64,000 nucleotides of DNA, taken from the NCBI GenBank assembly GCA_964613325.1, contig CAZTGP010000004.1:23768-87767 (forward strand), given 5' to 3'. Of this stretch, positions 9,213 to 56,698 are shown piece after piece. Under the pieces are notes generated by a model. The model was given only the letters and a program-made list of their open reading frames with translations, did not search any database and was not told the origin of the DNA. How positions within the stretch are numbered: the stretch's first letter is position 1; each line of letters begins with the position of its first letter. The position numbers and the translations under genes are program-made. This DNA comes from an uncultured Roseburia sp. (GTDB lineage Bacteria > Bacillota > Clostridia > Lachnospirales > Lachnospiraceae).

Positions 9213-10442
9213 ATGCGTGAATATACATATGAAGAAATACTAGAAAAAATAGAAAATGCCAGACGCTTTGGCAATTTGCCAGGGGTAGAGGTAAGCAGGA
9301 AAATGCTTGAAATTCTGGGGGAACCCCAGAAAGGCATTCCTTATGTGCACATTGCAGGAACCAATGGAAAAGGATCTACGTCTGCATTTCTGACCAGCAT
9401 ACTTCAGAGGGCAGGAAAGAAAGTGGGAACTTTTACTTCACCTCATCTTGTGGATTTTCGTGAGCGAATTACCGTGAATGGAACAATGATTCCAAAAGAA
9501 GATGTGAAAAGAATTGGAAACCAGTTATTGAACATAGATTTTGGTGTGTCTGCAACGATGTTTGATTATTGCATGGTGATGGCTGTGCTCTACTTCAAAG
9601 AGCAGAATTGTGACATTACAATTATGGAGACTGGACTTGGAGGTAAGCTGGATTCCACCAATGCTCTTGGGATACCAGAAGTGGCAATCATTACCAAAAT
9701 TGGATTTGATCATATGGCGATTCTTGGAAACACCTTGGCAGAGATAGCAGCGGAGAAGGCTGGAATCATAAAGAAAGGCTCTTATGTTGTAATTGAAACT
9801 CAAGAACCGGAAGCAGACCAGGTGTTAGTACAGGCAGCTCAACAGGCAGATGGATTTTATGAAATCACAAAGGAAGATATCGAGCAGGCTTCAAAATTAG
9901 AAATGAGACTACTGGGAGTTCATCAGTGGGAGAATGCAGCAGCAGCAATCCGGGCAGCAGAATATCTGTTAAGTGATACCGGGATGCAGTCTGAATATAT
10001 CTGCGAAGGGGTAAAAGAAGCCCGCTGGCCAGGAAGAATGGAAATTCTTTCCAGAGAGCCATTCCTTATGGTAGATGGCGCGCATAATGGACACGGCGTC
10101 CTTGCACTTCGGGACAGCCTGCGTTTTTTGTATCCGGAGGAAAGATTCCATTTTATTATGGGGGTCATGGCGGATAAGGACTATGAGATTATGGTGACAG
10201 AGCTTTTGCCATTGGCTATAGATTTTGTGACAGTAACACCGGAAAGCAGCCGCGCGTTACAGGGGGAAGAGCTTGCACGCGTCATTGAGAAGAAAGGTAT
10301 CCACGCGAAAAACTGTATAAGTGTACAGGAAGCACTTCGTCCGTGGATAGAGCCAAAGCAGAATGCCAGCCCTGTGGATAAAACCATATGCTTTGGGTCG
10401 CTCTATTTCATTGGTGAAATTGAAGGGTTCCAAATTACTTAA
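9213..10442 (+). CDS. folC: Folylpolyglutamate synthase/dihydrofolate synthase
   Basis: HIAGTNGKGS, FTSPHL, METGLGGKLDSTN, DHMAILG, WPGRME, DGAHN and GSLY motifs. Confidence 0.92.
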   Translation: MREYTYEEILEKIENARRFGNLPGVEVSRKMLEILGEPQKGIPYVHIAGTNGKGSTSAFLTSILQRAGKKVGTFTSPHLVDFRERITVNGTMIPKEDVKRIGNQLLNIDFGVSATMFDYCMVMAVLYFKEQNCDITIMETGLGGKLDSTNALGIPEVAIITKIGFDHMAILGNTLAEIAAEKAGIIKKGSYVVIETQEPEADQVLVQAAQQADGFYEITKEDIEQASKLEMRLLGVHQWENAAAAIRAAEYLLSDTGMQSEYICEGVKEARWPGRMEILSREPFLMVDGAHNGHGVLALRDSLRFLYPEERFHFIMGVMADKDYEIMVTELLPLAIDFVTVTPESSRALQGEELARVIEKKGIHAKNCISVQEALRPWIEPKQNASPVDKTICFGSLYFIGEIEGFQIT

Positions 10443-17896: not shown

Positions 17897-17926
17897 TTCA
17901 TTTTCTGTTAAAACAGAATAGCATAT

Positions 17927-18132
17927 AGTTAATTGTGAAACGCTTTAAGTTTCTAATGACTATGTACTGCGGAATACAAGGAAACATAGGCACGCTTTCG
18001 CTACGTTGGCTCATGCAACGGTACTAAGCGACCAAAGTACGGTCGCTAAGGACCGGCTTCGCCAGAGTACCTATGTTTCCTTGTATTCGTAGTATATAGT
18101 CAATTAAGGGATTATGAGTTTCACAATTAACT
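17927..18132. repeat. Structured interspersed repeat, full copy 1 (MITE/REP-like or ncRNA)
   Basis: 15-bp terminal IR agttaattgtgaaac/gtttcacaattaact; ~35-bp inner IR; core hairpins. The 93-nt core differs at 4 positions from the copy at 36492-36584. Confidence 0.85.
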
Positions 18133-18148
18133 AGAATAGCGTATAGTA

Positions 18149-36297: not shown

Positions 36298-36432
36298 ATG
36301 AGAAACCTCCACAATTAATTACCTATATTGTACCATGACAAACGGTTGCAGCGCAATATATTACCTGTTTTGCTCATTTTTGTTAAGGCATTTCTATGGG
36401 AGGCGTGTATAATAACTATTAGAAACAAGTTT

Positions 36433-36637
36433 AGTTAATTGCAAAACACATTGAATTCACAATGACTATGTACTACAAATACAAACAAACCTAGGCACGC
36501 TTGCGCTACATTGGCTCATGCAACGGTACTAAGCGACCAAAGTACGGTCGCAAAGGACCGGCTTCGCCAGAGTGCCTATGTTTCTTTGCATTTGTAGTAC
36601 ATAGCCAATCGAAGGATTGTGAGTTTTGCAATTAACG
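36433..36637. repeat. Structured interspersed repeat, full copy 2
   Basis: 14-bp terminal IR gttaattgcaaaac/gttttgcaattaac; near-identical core to 17987-18079. Confidence 0.85.
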
Positions 36638-36672
36638 AAGAGATTTCAGATGTGAATTATGGAGGTAGAAGC

Positions 36673-37917
36673 ATGCAGATGCCAAGTAAAGCGACAATAG
36701 AGAATGTATATGGAGATAAGGCAGGCACAGAAGCCCGCTTTGAGAATTTGAGCACACAGTTTACTAAGAATTTTGGGATGACAGATATGGAGTTCTTTAC
36801 CGCACCAGGTAGAACAGAAATCGTTGGAAACCATACAGATCATAATGGTGGCAAAGTATTAGCAGCAAGTATCGATATGGATACAATCGGAGCAGCTTAC
36901 CCAAATAATTCCAATGTGATTGAGATCATTAGTGAAGGATACCCAGGTAAGATCGTTGTGGATCTTGACAAAATTGATGAAGTACCAATCAACCAGGGAA
37001 CAGTGTCTTTAGTTGCAGGTATGGTAAAAGGTGCAGAAAAATTCGGATACAAGGTATCTGGTTTTAGTGCATATGTTTCAACAGAAGTAATCAGCTCAGC
37101 AGGTGTAAGCTCTTCCGCTTCCTTTGAGATGTTATTTTGTACAATAATGAATTATTTCTTTAATGATAATAAAATCCCATATATGGATTATGCAAGAATC
37201 GGTCAGTTTTCTGAGAATCAGTACTGGAGCAAGGCTTCTGGGCTTATGGATCAGATGGCTTGTGCAGTTGGTGGTACGATTCTTTTAGATTTCCAGGATG
37301 GCGTAAAATACGAGAAGGTTGATTTCGGATACGATAAATTTGGTTATGAGATGGTTATCATCAACACTGGAAAAGGCCATGCTGATTTAAGTGACGAGTA
37401 CAGTGCAGTACCAAACGAGATGAAGGCAGTTGCCAAATGCCTTGGATGCACACAGCTTGCAGATACGAGCATGGAAGCATTGCTGGAGAATCTCTCTAAG
37501 GTAGAAGCAGAAGTAAAGAATGACCGCGCAATCTTACGTGCATTCCATTTCTTAAATGAGAATGCAAGAGTAGAGGATTTAATCACAGCAATGAATGCAA
37601 AAGACAGTGATAAAATTCTTCACATCATTTCTGAGTCGGGAAGATCCTCATGGGAACTTTTACAGAATTGTTATTCTTTGATTGATTACAAAGAGCAGAA
37701 GATATCTCTTGCCCTTGCACTTACAGAGCAGTTCTTAAATAAGATCGGTGATGGATGCTGCCGTGTACATGGTGGTGGTTTCGCTGGTGTTATCATGTGT
37801 GCAGTTCCAAAGCAGTATACAGAGGAGTATGTTGCATTCATCTCTAAATATTTTGGAATAGAGAATGTATATCCAATGAACATTCGTCAGGTTGGAGCTA
37901 CTCATCTGGCAAAATAA
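36673..37917 (+). CDS. galK: Galactokinase-family GHMP kinase
   Basis: APGRTEIVGNHTDHNGG, SSAGVSSSASFE, SGLMDQMA and RVHGGGFAG motifs. GGAGGT RBS before ATG 36673. Confidence 0.8.
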   Translation: MQMPSKATIENVYGDKAGTEARFENLSTQFTKNFGMTDMEFFTAPGRTEIVGNHTDHNGGKVLAASIDMDTIGAAYPNNSNVIEIISEGYPGKIVVDLDKIDEVPINQGTVSLVAGMVKGAEKFGYKVSGFSAYVSTEVISSAGVSSSASFEMLFCTIMNYFFNDNKIPYMDYARIGQFSENQYWSKASGLMDQMACAVGGTILLDFQDGVKYEKVDFGYDKFGYEMVIINTGKGHADLSDEYSAVPNEMKAVAKCLGCTQLADTSMEALLENLSKVEAEVKNDRAILRAFHFLNENARVEDLITAMNAKDSDKILHIISESGRSSWELLQNCYSLIDYKEQKISLALALTEQFLNKIGDGCCRVHGGGFAGVIMCAVPKQYTEEYVAFISKYFGIENVYPMNIRQVGATHLAK

Positions 37918-52406: not shown

Positions 52407-53234
52407 ATGGCAAATATTATTGAAATCATGGACTTTATGGCGCAGGAACTAGATGCGTATGCAAGATTAAATGAGGCTCAGCTTCTACATATCAACGAGC
52501 CAAAAGAGGGGATTTTCATTGCGGAAAGTCCAATCGTAGTGGAACGAGCATTGAACGCTGGTTATGTTCCAATTTCTATATTGGTGGATAAGAAGGATAT
52601 TGAGGGATCGGCGAAAAGTATGATCGCACGTTGCGGAGATATTCCAATTTATACTGCTGAGACAAATATCCTGACACAGCTAACAGGTTTTCAATTGACA
52701 CGAGGAATGCTGTGTGCAATGAAGCGCACAAAGCTTCCGTCGGTTGCAGATGTGTGTAAAAATGCAAAGCGTATTGCAATCTTAGAAGATGTAGTGAATC
52801 CTACCAATGTAGGAGCGATATTCCGTTCTGCAGCAGCATTAAATATGGATGCAGTTCTTTTAACCAGCGCGTGTAGTAATCCTTTGTATCGCCGTGCAAT
52901 CCGTGTGAGCATGGGAACAGTTTTTCAGATTCCATGGACAATCTGGAATTCAGACATTGATTGGCCAGATGCAGGGATGAAGGAACTTCATGAACTTGGA
53001 TTCAAGACAGCAGCAATGGCATTAACTGATCAATCGGTATCCATAGATGATCCGCAGGTTATGAAAGAAGAGAAACTTGCTATTATTCTTGGAACAGAAG
53101 GAGAAGGATTAAAGAAAGATACAATCGCGGCATGTGATTATACCATTCGAATTCCAATGACACATGGGGTGGACTCCTTGAATGTGGCAGCAGCAAGTGC
53201 AGTGGCGTTCTGGCAGTTGGGACATCGAAAATAA
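52407..53234 (+). CDS. TrmH/SpoU family RNA 2'-O-methyltransferase
   Basis: DVVNPTNVGAIFRSAAA, RRAIRVSMG, LGTEGEGL and IPM..VDSLNVAAA motifs. Confidence 0.92.
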   Translation: MANIIEIMDFMAQELDAYARLNEAQLLHINEPKEGIFIAESPIVVERALNAGYVPISILVDKKDIEGSAKSMIARCGDIPIYTAETNILTQLTGFQLTRGMLCAMKRTKLPSVADVCKNAKRIAILEDVVNPTNVGAIFRSAAALNMDAVLLTSACSNPLYRRAIRVSMGTVFQIPWTIWNSDIDWPDAGMKELHELGFKTAAMALTDQSVSIDDPQVMKEEKLAIILGTEGEGLKKDTIAACDYTIRIPMTHGVDSLNVAAASAVAFWQLGHRK

Positions 53235-53342
53235 ATTGCAAGGAAGAAATCGTGATTATGGGGAAACAATTGACAAGTGGATAATACCAAGTAGATAAAA
53301 ATGGAAATGTAACTGGAGTAAAATAGAATAAATGGGAGTTAT

Positions 53343-53837
53343 ATGGAAGTAAGAAAAAGTACAATAAATGATATGGATGAAATCCTAGCCATTTTTGATG
53401 TGGCAAAAGAATATATGGTTGCACATGGAAATACAACACAATGGGGAGATGGTTATCCTGGAGTAGATGTACTTACAAAGGATATTACAAATGAGGACAG
53501 TTATGTAATTACAGAAAACCGGGCTGTTGTGGGAACTTTCTCTTTTATTGTAGGGGATGAACCAACCTATCAGTTAATTGACAATGGCGCGTGGAATTAC
53601 AACAAATCATATGGAACAATTCACAGGCTGGCTTCAAGTGGAACCACCAAAGGAGTGGCAAAAGTCTGTTTTGATTTCTGTTCTAATCAGATTGATTATA
53701 TGAGAATTGATACACACGAAGATAATCACACAATGCAGGCAGCAATTGAAAGCTATGGATTTCAGAAATGTGGAACAATCTATGTAAGAGATGGTGCTAA
53801 GAGGATTGCTTATGACTATTTTTTAGATTTGTACTGA
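53343..53837 (+). CDS. GNAT family N-acetyltransferase
   Basis: QWGDGYP, TIHRLAS, RIDTHEDN and GFQKCG motifs. Confidence 0.85.
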   Translation: MEVRKSTINDMDEILAIFDVAKEYMVAHGNTTQWGDGYPGVDVLTKDITNEDSYVITENRAVVGTFSFIVGDEPTYQLIDNGAWNYNKSYGTIHRLASSGTTKGVAKVCFDFCSNQIDYMRIDTHEDNHTMQAAIESYGFQKCGTIYVRDGAKRIAYDYFLDLY

Positions 53838-53900
53838 TTTGCTCTACTATTTATTGCCATTGTCCCCGAAACACAAATCCCCTGTCCCCATTTATTGTGT

Positions 53901-54166
53901 TTTGTGAGGTATTTGAAAAAACTTACTATTACATCACATTTTATTGCAAAAATGGCTAAAATTCCATCTTAGGAAGCGTTTTTTTCACTTTGGTGTGATG
54001 TATACGAAATAATTCATTCTCCACATCACCGAATTCTTTGATTTCTGTGATGTGGTTTCCCTGTTTTTTCATATACCTCACAGATTAGTTGACATAATGG
54101 AAAATAAAGCATTAAATTTCCAGAAAATGTGATGTAAATAGTTGCTTTTTTCAAATACATCACAAA
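53901..54166. repeat. ORF-less element of four GTGA(T/G)GT(A/G)-N18/19-(T/C)AC(A/C)TCAC dyads with ~39-bp terminal inverted repeats
   Basis: Dyads at 53904-37, 53995-54029, 54047-81 and 54129-63. Unit 4 is the reverse complement of unit 1; unit 3 resembles the reverse complement of unit 2. Confidence 0.85.
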
Positions 54167-54215
54167 TCCTAACCTGTAGTGAAATATTATAAAGAAAATT
54201 TTAAGGAGAATACAA

Positions 54216-54845
54216 ATGATTGAAAAAGCCATTGAATATATAAAGAATTTTTTCTGTGAGGAATATAGTGGACATGATTATTGGCATTCCATGCGAGTGT
54301 ACCATACTGCCACTGAGCTTGCTAAAAAAGAAGGAGCAAATATAATGGTTGTGCAGCTAGCGGCATTGTTACATGACGTGGATGATATGAAGCTGTCTCC
54401 GGATACATATGAGAATAAGGAACACGCGGTATCGTTTCTGTCGGATGCGGGCGTTGATAACGAAACAATTCAATTTGTGTGTAACATAATCGACGATGTA
54501 TCCTATAAGGGGAATGAATCTGTTTGCCCAGCAACCATCGAAGGAAAATGCGTACAGGATGCAGATAGACTAGATGCAATCGGAGCCATTGGAATTGCAA
54601 GAGCATTTGCATATGGTGGGAATCATGACAGAATCATGTATGACCCAGATATCAAACCTCGAACAAATATGAGCGCAGAACAATATCGAAAGAATAAAGG
54701 TACAACCATAAACCATTTCTATGAGAAATTGTTCAAATTGAAGGAGCTTATGAATACAGAGACTGCAAAGCAAATTGCAGAGAATAGAGAGAAGTATATG
54801 CATGAGTTTATTGACGAATTCTTATTAGAATGGAATGGAAAATGA
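54216..54845 (+). CDS. HD-domain metal-dependent phosphohydrolase (YedJ-like)
   Basis: GHDYWHSMRV, ALLHDVDD, VQDADRLDAIGAIGIAR and HFYEKL motifs. Confidence 0.9.
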   Translation: MIEKAIEYIKNFFCEEYSGHDYWHSMRVYHTATELAKKEGANIMVVQLAALLHDVDDMKLSPDTYENKEHAVSFLSDAGVDNETIQFVCNIIDDVSYKGNESVCPATIEGKCVQDADRLDAIGAIGIARAFAYGGNHDRIMYDPDIKPRTNMSAEQYRKNKGTTINHFYEKLFKLKELMNTETAKQIAENREKYMHEFIDEFLLEWNGK

Positions 54846-54972
54846 AAAATGAACTTTTTAAGACCAATCCAATCAAAAAATAAACTTTTTGACTGAATAA
54901 TAAAGAAAATACAACGAAAGTTTAACTTTAACTTGAACTTACACCTATATAATGATATGCTCTTCTTGATAA

Positions 54973-55140
54973 AAATAAACTTTTAATAGAAATAATTTCT
55001 TTGAGTAGAAATAAACTGCTGAACAGAGAAACGATTTCTTTAAATAGAAATAAACTATTGAACAGAAAAATGAATTTTTTGAATAAAAAATAAACTATTG
55101 AATAGAAGAATATATTTTCAAATAGAGAAAATGAACTTCC
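54973..55140 (+). repeat. AT-rich tandem array, nine ~20-bp units, upstream of the HTH-AlaA gene
   Basis: Units start at 54973, 54990, 55009, 55029, 55048, 55068, 55088, 55108 and 55129; AAAT(A/G)AACT recurs about every 40 bp. Confidence 0.75.
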
Positions 55141-55183
55141 GAGAGCAAATATATGGATTTAGAAGGAAAAAGGAGCGCAGGTT

Positions 55184-56698
55184 ATGGCTGAAGCAATATT
55201 TACAGAACGATTTAATCAAGCGATGAACAGACAAGGCGTGAAACAGGTTGATCTGCTTCGAGCGGCGAATGCTGCAGGAGTAAAGCTTAGTAAGAGCCAG
55301 ATTAGTCAATACGTAAGCGGGAAAGCTGTTCCAAGAGAGAATATTGGGCATTTTCTTGCGAAGGAACTGAAGGTTGATGTTTCGTGGCTGTATGGAAAAG
55401 ACACGAAATCGTTTGTAGCTGATATTGCAAGCCTTGACACCTTGTCGAAGGATAGCGATACGGCAGTGGAGAGGAATAAGAGTATGCGTGAATTTAAGAA
55501 GTCATCGAAGTTAGATAATGTGTTATATGATGTTAGAGGACCCGTTGTAGAAGAAGCGAATCGTATGGAGGAAAATGGAACCCATGTGCTGAAATTGAAC
55601 ATTGGGAATCCAGCACCATTTGGCTTCCGCACACCAGACGAAGTGGTATATGATATGCAGAGACAGATTACGGAATGTGAAGGTTACTCTGCATCCAAGG
55701 GACTTTTTTCAGCAAGAAAAGCCATCATGCAGTATGCACAGCTGAAGAAGCTCCCAAATGTAACAATCAATGATATCTATACTGGAAATGGAGTTAGCGA
55801 ATTAATTAACTTAAGTATGTCAGCTCTTTTAGATAATGGGGATGAAGTACTTGTTCCATCACCGGATTATCCCCTTTGGACAGCGTGTGTAACACTTGCA
55901 GGTGGCAACGCAGTTCACTATATTTGTGACGAACAGTCTGAATGGTATCCGGATATGGAGGATATGAAAAAGAAGATTACGGATAAGACAAAGGCAATAG
56001 TTATCATTAATCCAAACAATCCAACTGGAGCCCTTTATCCAAGAGAAGTCCTTCAGCAGATTGTTGAGATTGCAAGAGAACACCAGCTTATCATTTTCTC
56101 AGATGAGATCTATGATCGCCTTGTTATGGATGGAGAGGAACATGTGTCTATCGCGTCTTTGGCTCCGGACCTGTTCTGTGTCACCTATAGCGGATTGTCC
56201 AAATCACATATGATTGCAGGATTTCGTATTGGCTGGATGGTATTAAGTGGCAACAAGAGCATGGCAAAAGATTACATTGAAGGCTTGAATATGTTGTCTA
56301 ACATGAGAATCTGTTCCAATGTTCCGGCGCAGTCAATTGTGCAGACAGCACTTGGTGGATATCAAAGTGTTCAGGAATATATTGTTCCAGGGGGACGTGT
56401 GTATGAACAGCGCGAGTATATCTACAAGGCATTGAATGATATCCCAGGAATCACAGCAGTGAAGCCAAAAGCAGCGTTCTACATTTTCCCAAAGATTGAT
56501 GTGAAGCGTTTCAATATCGTGGATGATGAGAAATTCGCGTTGGATTTATTGCGTGAAAAGAAGATCCTAATTGTTCATGGAGGCGGATTCAATTGGAAGG
56601 ACCCAGATCATTTCCGTGTGGTTTATTTGCCTCGTATGGAAGTACTGGAAGAGGCAGTTGGAAAATTAGGAGACTTCCTCAGCTATTATAAACAGTAG
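55184..56698 (+). CDS. alaA: N-terminal XRE HTH fused to class I/II PLP aminotransferase (AlaA-type glutamate-pyruvate transaminase)
   Basis: KQVDLL..KLSKSQISQYVSGKAVP HTH; LYDVRGPV, LKLNIGNPA, INPNNPTGA, SDEIYD and SGLSKSHMIAGFRIGW (PLP Lys) motifs. Confidence 0.88.
   Translation: MAEAIFTERFNQAMNRQGVKQVDLLRAANAAGVKLSKSQISQYVSGKAVPRENIGHFLAKELKVDVSWLYGKDTKSFVADIASLDTLSKDSDTAVERNKSMREFKKSSKLDNVLYDVRGPVVEEANRMEENGTHVLKLNIGNPAPFGFRTPDEVVYDMQRQITECEGYSASKGLFSARKAIMQYAQLKKLPNVTINDIYTGNGVSELINLSMSALLDNGDEVLVPSPDYPLWTACVTLAGGNAVHYICDEQSEWYPDMEDMKKKITDKTKAIVIINPNNPTGALYPREVLQQIVEIAREHQLIIFSDEIYDRLVMDGEEHVSIASLAPDLFCVTYSGLSKSHMIAGFRIGWMVLSGNKSMAKDYIEGLNMLSNMRICSNVPAQSIVQTALGGYQSVQEYIVPGGRVYEQREYIYKALNDIPGITAVKPKAAFYIFPKIDVKRFNIVDDEKFALDLLREKKILIVHGGGFNWKDPDHFRVVYLPRMEVLEEAVGKLGDFLSYYKQ

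Follow-up and report, generated by a model that had tools for sequence, protein, structure and literature searches.

A dispersed four-site repeat fused to REP units in a gut Clostridia genome that encodes a single RAYT

The locus described here lies within a 64-kb window (contig C4:23768–87767) of a gut Clostridia genome, available as a fragmented metagenome bin of 3.36 Mb in 213 contigs with 40% GC, in which a gene labelled GNAT is separated by a 378-bp spacer from a gene for an HD-domain protein. Almost all of this spacer is filled by a repeat, here named F1, the core of which carries four related dyad sites in two inverted pairs. An initial annotation of the window had taken the array mainly for an att- or res-like segment, invertible or excisable, that switches the HD gene. 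Here we show that F1 is a multi-copy dispersed repeat and not a one-off recombination site. With a probability of roughly 0.6, we propose that it is a lineage-specific, non-coding and non-autonomous mosaic resembling bacterial interspersed mosaic elements (BIMEs) and MITEs (miniature inverted-repeat transposable elements), in which a doublet of repetitive extragenic palindromic (REP) units is joined in fixed register to a four-site core (-> -> <- <-). The repeat was previously uncatalogued; its class, the bacterial interspersed mosaic repeats of BIME, REPIN or MITE-like type, is already known. What is distinctive about F1 is the fusion of four rigidly spaced, sequence-constrained bipartite sites to REP units in a Clostridia genome that has a REP-associated tyrosine transposase (RAYT).

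Both neighbouring genes are read on the forward strand. The upstream gene (53343–53837 in window coordinates, used throughout unless a contig is named) encodes 164 amino acids; GNAT is the label given to it by the initial annotation, and its product has no Pfam match. The HD gene (54216–54845) encodes 209 amino acids and is preceded by the ribosome-binding site AAGGAG at 54203–54208. The pattern GTGAKGTR-N17-20-YACMTCAC matches four times in the window and not once in 100 shuffles, which reproduces, in their narrower GTGAKGTR-N18/19-YACMTCAC form, the four units first reported to start at 53904, 53995, 54047 and 54129. Unit 1 (outer left, forward, 53904–53937; GTGAGGTATTTGAAAAAAC-TTACTAT-TACATCAC) and unit 2 (inner left, forward, 53995–54029) are followed by unit 3 (inner right, reverse, 54047–54081), which stands tail to tail with unit 2, the two being separated by 17 bp centred on GAATTC, and by unit 4 (outer right, reverse, 54129–54163), the inverted partner of unit 1. 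The asymmetric unit interiors, GTGAGGTATWYRAAAAAA-N9-YACATCAC, confirm the forward reading of the first two units and the reverse reading of the last two. The proposed terminal inverted repeat between units 1 and 4 was also recovered, as 30 nt at 87% identity (53901–53930 and 54137–54166) and then 21 nt at 86%, with TGT...ACA at the ends of the window element, and it is kept family-wide.

The F1 core, a nested imperfect palindrome containing the four sites, occupies 53903–54164 on the forward strand (262 bp, TGTGAGGTA...TACATCACA). The locus had first been described as a 266-bp element without an open reading frame (ORF). Only short, non-conserved ORFs cross 53901–54166 and none is conserved across copies, so that this part of the description stands, but the conserved element is longer than 266 bp because a REP doublet at 53861–53888 and the stretch from about 53824 belong to most copies. 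In the doublet, TGTCCC units on the forward strand begin at 53861 and 53883, 22 bp apart, and the second begins exactly 20 nt upstream of the core. Further out, alignment of the copies and the repeat coverage of their flanks define an outermost left segment (53824–53860, forward; consensus GATTTGTGATGATTTG..CTATTG.ATG.CAT) that is common to about ten copies. The right flank (54165–54195, forward; family consensus AACTTAGRA..) is weakly conserved, running on in some copies into a separate module of about 95 bp, itself a repeat, or into tandem arrays.

Across the source genome there are 71 exact matches to the unit, falling into 25 clusters with the same internal spacing, compared with none for a reversed control pattern; by BLAST and alignment, 24 F1 copies could be anchored, in addition to several fragments. 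Their cores are 253 or 263 bp long, the 10-bp difference lying between units 1 and 2, and in nearly all of them the units start at relative positions 0, 82, 134 and either 216 or 226. Because this spacing is constant, indels must be almost absent, despite a mean pairwise identity of only 74.5% (range 63.5–87%). In the 'variable' segment the consensus differs from one unit position to the next, indicating that the four-unit layout is ancestral to F1. All copies are intergenic and occur in both orientations, between tandem (10), convergent (4) or divergent (2) gene pairs, an arrangement that excludes an ordinary promoter or operator regulon; an operator array for a transcription-factor regulon was rejected on the same grounds, its position and orientation relative to genes being inconsistent. 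Copies vary in whether they carry the left and right modules, independently of the core; truncated and internally deleted copies also exist.

Comparison of individual copies locates the module boundaries sharply. Two copies that lie in different contexts, at C17:14172 and C11:55966, have the same core sequence at all 253 of 253 positions, which suggests recent copying. TGTGAGG marks the exact left limit of their similarity, C17 having the REP module and C11 unrelated sequence beyond it; to the right of the core, similarity persists for about 95 bp but falls to about 92% identity. The closest relatives of the window copy, on C130 and at C5:79825 (both 91%), share its left modules and core and diverge from it directly after CATCACAA. 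Such boundaries imply that the core assorts as a module, independently of its neighbours; judged from sequence comparison, mobile or recombining selfish DNA behaves in this way. No target-site duplication (TSD) flanks the core in 22–23 copies, whether sought as exact repeats of 2–9 bp at offsets of up to ±6 or as fuzzy ones at up to ±4, in agreement with the earlier failure to see a 5-bp duplication at the window locus, an absence that speaks against transposition by a DDE enzyme, whether cut-and-paste or replicative. The initial suggestion that a mobile element could have left the array as its footprint or derivative, with sites like those bound by transposases, is upheld by some 25 dispersed, sharp-ended copies, unlike the att- or res-like switch that was proposed with it. 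We consider it probable that the F1 family is, or once was, mobile DNA.

Conservation within F1 is blockwise. The segments TGTGAGGTATWYGAAAAAA, TYACATCACA, AGTTNACATAA and GAAAATGTGATGTA are near-invariant and the intervening segments are near saturation, each bipartite site of about 37 bp comprising the 19-bp block TGTGAGGTATWYGAAAAAA and the 10-bp block TYACATCACA with about eight variable bases between them. At 64 arm positions predefined from the motif of the initial annotation, non-consensus bases are 4.5-fold, and singleton changes 2.6-fold, rarer than elsewhere. A-tracts lie inside each unit. Compared with shuffled sequence, the window copy is predicted to form a far more stable, long hairpin (z = -7.9 as DNA and -9.1 as RNA), a strong fold that the inverted repeats by themselves produce. 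Covariation was not detected: the variable 9-mers of units 1 and 4 and of units 2 and 3 are equally complementary within and between copies (permutation p = 0.65 and 0.18, respectively), the RNAalifold covariance term is +0.15, and double-sided variants occur in only 1 of 37 pairs; the arms of unit 1, moreover, keep a G.A mismatch in nearly all copies. Rigid spacing together with blockwise conservation in the absence of covariation gives the blocks the appearance of being protein-read, and most likely what is maintained is a sequence recognized by a protein, not base pairing.

No gene product emerges from the same comparisons. A search of 53000–55500 returned no credible Rfam match, only chance matches to snoRNA and miRNA families with E > 4. 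A 38-amino-acid ORF on the minus strand, starting from unit 3 (MKKxxxHITEIxEFCDV..), is open in about half of the copies; we rejected it as a small protein, since its start codon is absent in 8 of 23 copies and several copies are truncated or frameshifted. The residues that seem 'conserved' are so because the conserved DNA blocks lie beneath them.

A second, related family, F2, is present at about eight loci (among them C12:45930–46150, C13:11040–11400, C27:13480–13700, C54:12790–13020, C103:200–420, C16:~12765 and C48:~9427–9582). It consists of four units, GGGGCGTATAYRAAAAAA-N9-YACATYCC, in the order + - + -, and often lies within an outer inverted repeat, GTGTCCACTGTATGGG...CCCATATAGTGGACAC. 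F2 has the unit interior and part of a spacer in common with F1, from which the interior appears to be the shared recognition part and the outer 5–6 bp to be family-specific. A scan of the assembly with a unit hidden Markov model (HMM) recovered nothing beyond the clusters already known and the weaker F2 family, in a fragmented bin that is without most long repeats.

The left module of F1 connects the family to the REP units of the genome. Of 24 copies, 19 have YGTCCC starting exactly 20 nt ahead of the core (TGTGAGG), in most cases within a doublet of 22-bp period. Genome-wide, there are 185 REP-type doublets in 80 clusters, compared with 11 for a control pattern; of the clusters, 31 take the form of inverted arrays, or REPIN-like hairpins, and 18 lie directly beside an F1 core. 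The assembly has a sole Y1_Tnp gene, at C85:5483–6229 and thus on a contig other than that of the window, which encodes a RAYT of 250 amino acids and is flanked on both sides by inverted CGTCCC/TGTCCC arrays of 22-bp period (C85:5100–6400), a repeat type that matches the left module of F1 at 53861–53888. The protein has the HUH (HLH) and YIHNNP motifs and a Pfam Y1_Tnp match, and scores 81.5 bits against the cut-off of 80 for the NCBIfam equivalog REP_Tyr_transpos. Its AlphaFold model (mean confidence, pLDDT, 88) best matches structure 4er8 (E = 5e-8), in which the Escherichia coli RAYT is in complex with a REP hairpin. The model also predicts about 100 additional residues at the C terminus, a helical extension whose last part resembles a helix-turn-helix (HTH). 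This extension has no Pfam match, and a whole-chain fold search matched the catalytic domain only; a DnaA-box-like role for the TGTGA arms was rejected for these reasons.

We propose that the four sites serve as recognition modules through which F1 would be copied by an enzyme supplied in trans, along a route that leaves no duplication. One candidate is a single-strand mechanism of the HUH/RAYT type, acting via the attached REP units and the hairpin-prone arms; another would be recombination between REP-rich intergenic mosaics. That the RAYT of this genome is the enzyme mobilizing F1 is possible, if doubtful. More speculatively, F1 and F2 could together represent a new class of RAYT-dependent composite element, in which the RAYT, with its helical C-terminal extension and HTH-like end, would recognize four bipartite sites as double-stranded DNA in a fixed synaptic arrangement and the attached REP doublet would act as a cleavage or loading module, unlike classical REP systems, which depend on a compact REP hairpin; we think this improbable. 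If true, such an element would be a REPIN-like replicator in Bacillota with a transposon-end-like four-site architecture and no target duplication.

Several observations weigh against the mosaic and the route of copying proposed for it. The RAYT gene is flanked by CGTCCC/TGTCCC units and not by F1 units, which leaves the fused REP doublet as the one tie between enzyme and repeat, and four or five F1 copies have no REP doublet; mobilization of F1 by the RAYT is for both reasons something that we infer and not a result. Single F1 units make poor hairpins, with arms of 8–9 bp, the conserved G.A mismatch and a loop of 18–19 nt. No movement was seen, all three loci that were checked in other samples (window, C11 and C58) carrying F1. 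The depletion of singleton changes in the conserved blocks could mean that each copy serves the host. Finally, because the bin is fragmented and holds few long repeats, a cognate transposase may be missing from it.

Among the collections searched, this gut Clostridia species alone yielded F1. No match to the unit pattern occurs in 40 relatives, nor to the shared interior pattern in 100 other species of the genus; blastn against 300 genera of the family gave only matches of about 30 nt (E about 1e-3 to 1e-4), and exact-pattern scans of GTDB genomes, IMG/VR and JGI metagenomes yielded nothing or chance singletons. A BLAST search of the element against 60 loci retrieved from collections gave one 53-nt match (E = 0.003), and a plasmid collection contained no match. 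In another genome of the genus (G014), a RAYT of 50% identity is accompanied by no more than five REPs, and F1 is missing. In contigs of a sister species (83–89% nucleotide identity) the RAYT is 77% identical, within a range of 77–82% over the sister lineages, and the same REP arrays are present, with no F1 unit in the 33 kb examined. A clean empty site was not available at the htpG locus, since the sister species carries a REPIN and six additional genes there, between the thioesterase gene and htpG (L226:6118–9647): genes for Yip1, a sigma-70 factor and ABC transporter components, and two small ORFs without a Pfam match. The corresponding thioesterase–htpG interval of the source genome (C10:36952–38192) is filled by 1.2 kb of repeats, including an F1 copy and tandem repeats. 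The closest labelled homologue of the RAYT is annotated as coming from a Roseburia sp. metagenome-assembled genome (MAG), the taxonomic family comprises more than 300 genera, a size that fits Lachnospiraceae, and the best homologue of the HD protein elsewhere is only 69% identical.

The GNAT–element–HD arrangement itself was found in four independent metagenome assemblies of the ENA, in which the copy is fixed, with the same 378-bp spacer in the same orientation and 0–2 single-nucleotide polymorphisms, both of which lie in the variable part of unit 3; the F1 copies on C11 and at C58:864 are also present in other samples. Contigs from Logan break consistently at 53971 and 54108. We considered and rejected these breaks as inversion junctions; they are repeat-derived, arising where 31-mers are shared with the C54 and C5:79825 copies. 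The insertions have left their mark on adjoining coding sequence. The left edge of the repeat (53824–53837) supplies the last codons of the GNAT gene and its stop codon (53835–53837), and at the C11 copy (C11:~56300–56320) a polysaccharide deacetylase gene takes its last codons and stop codon from the right module; with repeat modules forming the 3' ends of genes, insertion has evidently remodelled protein C termini.

As first annotated, a promoter-like sequence inside the element faces the HD gene. It is present at 54089–54118 on the forward strand as TTGACA-18-TAAATT (TTGACA-17-TTAAAT in the initial annotation) and matches at 10 of 12 positions. This site is among the best in the F1 family. 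The third base of its -35 hexamer is the most variable position of the otherwise conserved AGTTNACATAA block (G in 9, A in 8 and T in 5 of 23 copies), and this variability, with the unbiased orientation of the copies, means that any promoter activity would be incidental. The window copy may give the HD gene a promoter and a hairpin-prone leader as a side effect of insertion and not as a switch. When the 40 ORFs nearest to F1 copies were read, they proved to be ordinary metabolic, transport and regulatory genes, and a Pfam scan of the ten least obvious flanking ORFs gave one PDDEXK_2 and one Uma2 match and no integrase, resolvase or DDE transposase. The initial statement that the window holds no cognate enzyme agrees with this in so far as genes beside the copies are not those of recombinases, a check that covers the flanking genes and not an annotation of the whole window.

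Some further repeats and transposase genes were noted in passing. Several F1 copies adjoin short tandem arrays (C6:27200–27560, C10:37600–37700, C32:25528–25600 and C112:~1020–1090), of types that include 43-bp units containing GGGACAG and repeated about eight times, a 9-bp AGCATAGAA run and a 15-bp run; the array on C32 is a 22-bp reiteration of the terminus of F1 itself (TACATCACAAGCTAAAGAATTT), and this 22-bp period recurs in the REP arrays. The window contains two examples (17915–18144 and 36408–36673) of a third interspersed hairpin repeat, of about 205 bp, that has no motif in common with the F1 or F2 units. Downstream of the locus, the spacer between the HD gene and an HTH-aminotransferase gene (54846–55183) measures 263, 338 or 418 bp across metagenome samples, the window having the 338-bp form. 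Two contigs carry rve-type transposase genes. Contig C159 (3447 bp) encodes an rve-family transposase of 429 amino acids together with an AAA ATPase and has two further small ORFs; it may represent a transposon of the Mu/Tn552 type that assembled on its own. Contig C212 (1615 bp) has an IS30-like rve transposase, ends that are not unit-like and about 65% GC compared with 40% for the genome, and is probably contamination of the bin.

What F1 is must be judged against four other readings. Under the first it is a classical MITE: a DDE transposon of the Tn552/Mu/Tn7 or IR-DR kind, with two transposase-binding sites at each end, would have given rise to F1 by internal deletion, and this parent element would be missing from the bin. 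Small size, lack of coding capacity, terminal inverted repeats and about 24 dispersed intergenic copies are all typical of MITEs, the -> -> <- <- layout, the TGT and ACA termini and bipartite sites of about 37 bp conserved as sequence would suit paired transposase sites, and a bin that is without most multi-copy DNA may lack the parent; C159, moreover, with its rve transposase and AAA ATPase, begins with TGT and finishes with ACA. Yet the ends of C159 are dissimilar to F1 units, the unit HMM found no solitary units flanking any gene, and TSDs of 2–9 bp are lacking even when mismatches are allowed, although some should have remained intact among 22–23 copies. We regard this origin as unlikely. 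An alternative that dispenses with recent mobility would have each locus offer four phased sites to a lineage-specific DNA-binding protein, about 25 loci being kept by selection and not now spreading; the role would be nucleoid-structuring, gyrase/IHF-like or silencing, as proposed for BIMEs. Such a host function would explain why spacing is free of indels at 75% identity, why blocks are conserved without covariation, why singleton changes are depleted in the arms, why each unit has A-tracts and why the examined loci are fixed in all samples. It sits poorly with the absence of F1 from every other species examined (33 kb of the sister species included), with truncated and internally deleted copies and with two identical copies in different contexts, and no candidate protein has been identified; we consider it improbable.

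The two remaining readings place the function of F1 at the single locus or in a product. A gene for a structured RNA or for a small protein, with the 38-amino-acid ORF as the candidate, could be argued from the fold of the window copy (z = -9.1 as RNA, -7.9 as DNA) and from a frame that is open in roughly half of the copies; with the fold explained by inverted repeats, no covariation, no Rfam match and a frame that in many copies is without a start, truncated or frameshifted, this is very improbable. The switch of the initial annotation could draw on inverted pairs of related sites around a promoter-like sequence facing the HD gene, and we now give it almost no credence: about 25 copies occur in unrelated contexts with no orientation bias towards genes, no recombinase adjoins any of them, the promoter hexamers are only semi-conserved across the family, and one orientation is seen in five assemblies (the four from the ENA and the source genome). 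An invertible or excisable segment is not supported by a multi-copy family of which no occurrence is linked to a recombinase and for which neither inversion nor absence was observed, findings that the initial annotation had itself named as refuting it.

Taken as a BIME/MITE-like mosaic, F1 can be compared with several known systems. The BIME and REPIN–RAYT systems of Proteobacteria (Bertels & Rainey 2011, PMC3116915; Di Nocera et al. 2013, PMC3733652; Bertels et al. 2017, PMC5581495) are likewise extragenic, multi-copy and non-coding, produce no target duplications, combine REP units with other conserved motifs in fixed order and include a single-copy RAYT flanked by REP arrays. Longer palindromic tracts regularly accompany some REP families (PMC3733652), and the REP-rich RAYT groups 2 and 3 have been described mainly from Gammaproteobacteria (PMC5581495). 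F1 departs from these systems in that its core units do not flank the RAYT and show no covariation, in that its units are 37-bp bipartite sites with arms of 8–9 bp and long asymmetric interiors instead of compact REP hairpins, and in that its core assorts independently of the REP doublet, in a host that is a Clostridia MAG. With bacterial MITEs, such as the Correia elements (CREE) of Neisseria, RUP of pneumococcus and the Tn3-derived TIMEs, F1 shares small size, terminal inverted repeats, dispersed intergenic copies, possible outward promoters and the potential to form long hairpins; it differs in having four internal sites in place of simple terminal inverted repeats, and neither a TSD nor a cognate insertion sequence with matching ends. 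Elements of the Tn7, Mu and Tn552 type and those with IR-DR ends of the Tc1/mariner type carry several oriented transposase sites per end, at fixed spacing and with TGT...ACA termini, generate target duplications of 2–7 bp and depend on a DDE transposase of their own or from a partner. F1 resembles these ends in its 2 + 2 oriented sites, its TGT...ACA termini and its fixed spacing, whereas no target duplication or DDE transposase was found for it. Within the Firmicutes, the BOX elements of Streptococcus pneumoniae are also modular and non-coding, with optional modules and no known dedicated transposase (PMC3049150). BOX elements (A-Bn-C modules) have no sequence relation to F1 and are not nested inverted arrays of one type of site.

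Small interspersed repeats are poorly catalogued in gut Clostridia, and the genome described here presents a species-restricted expansion of them: about 25 copies of F1, the related F2, some 80 REP clusters and a single RAYT. Collectively, the F1 repeats break assemblies, reshape intergenic regions and extend or replace the 3' ends of genes, and they may donate promoters or hairpins to neighbours such as the HD gene. If the link to the RAYT is true, this species would offer a tractable system for the mobilization of composite DNA by an HUH enzyme.

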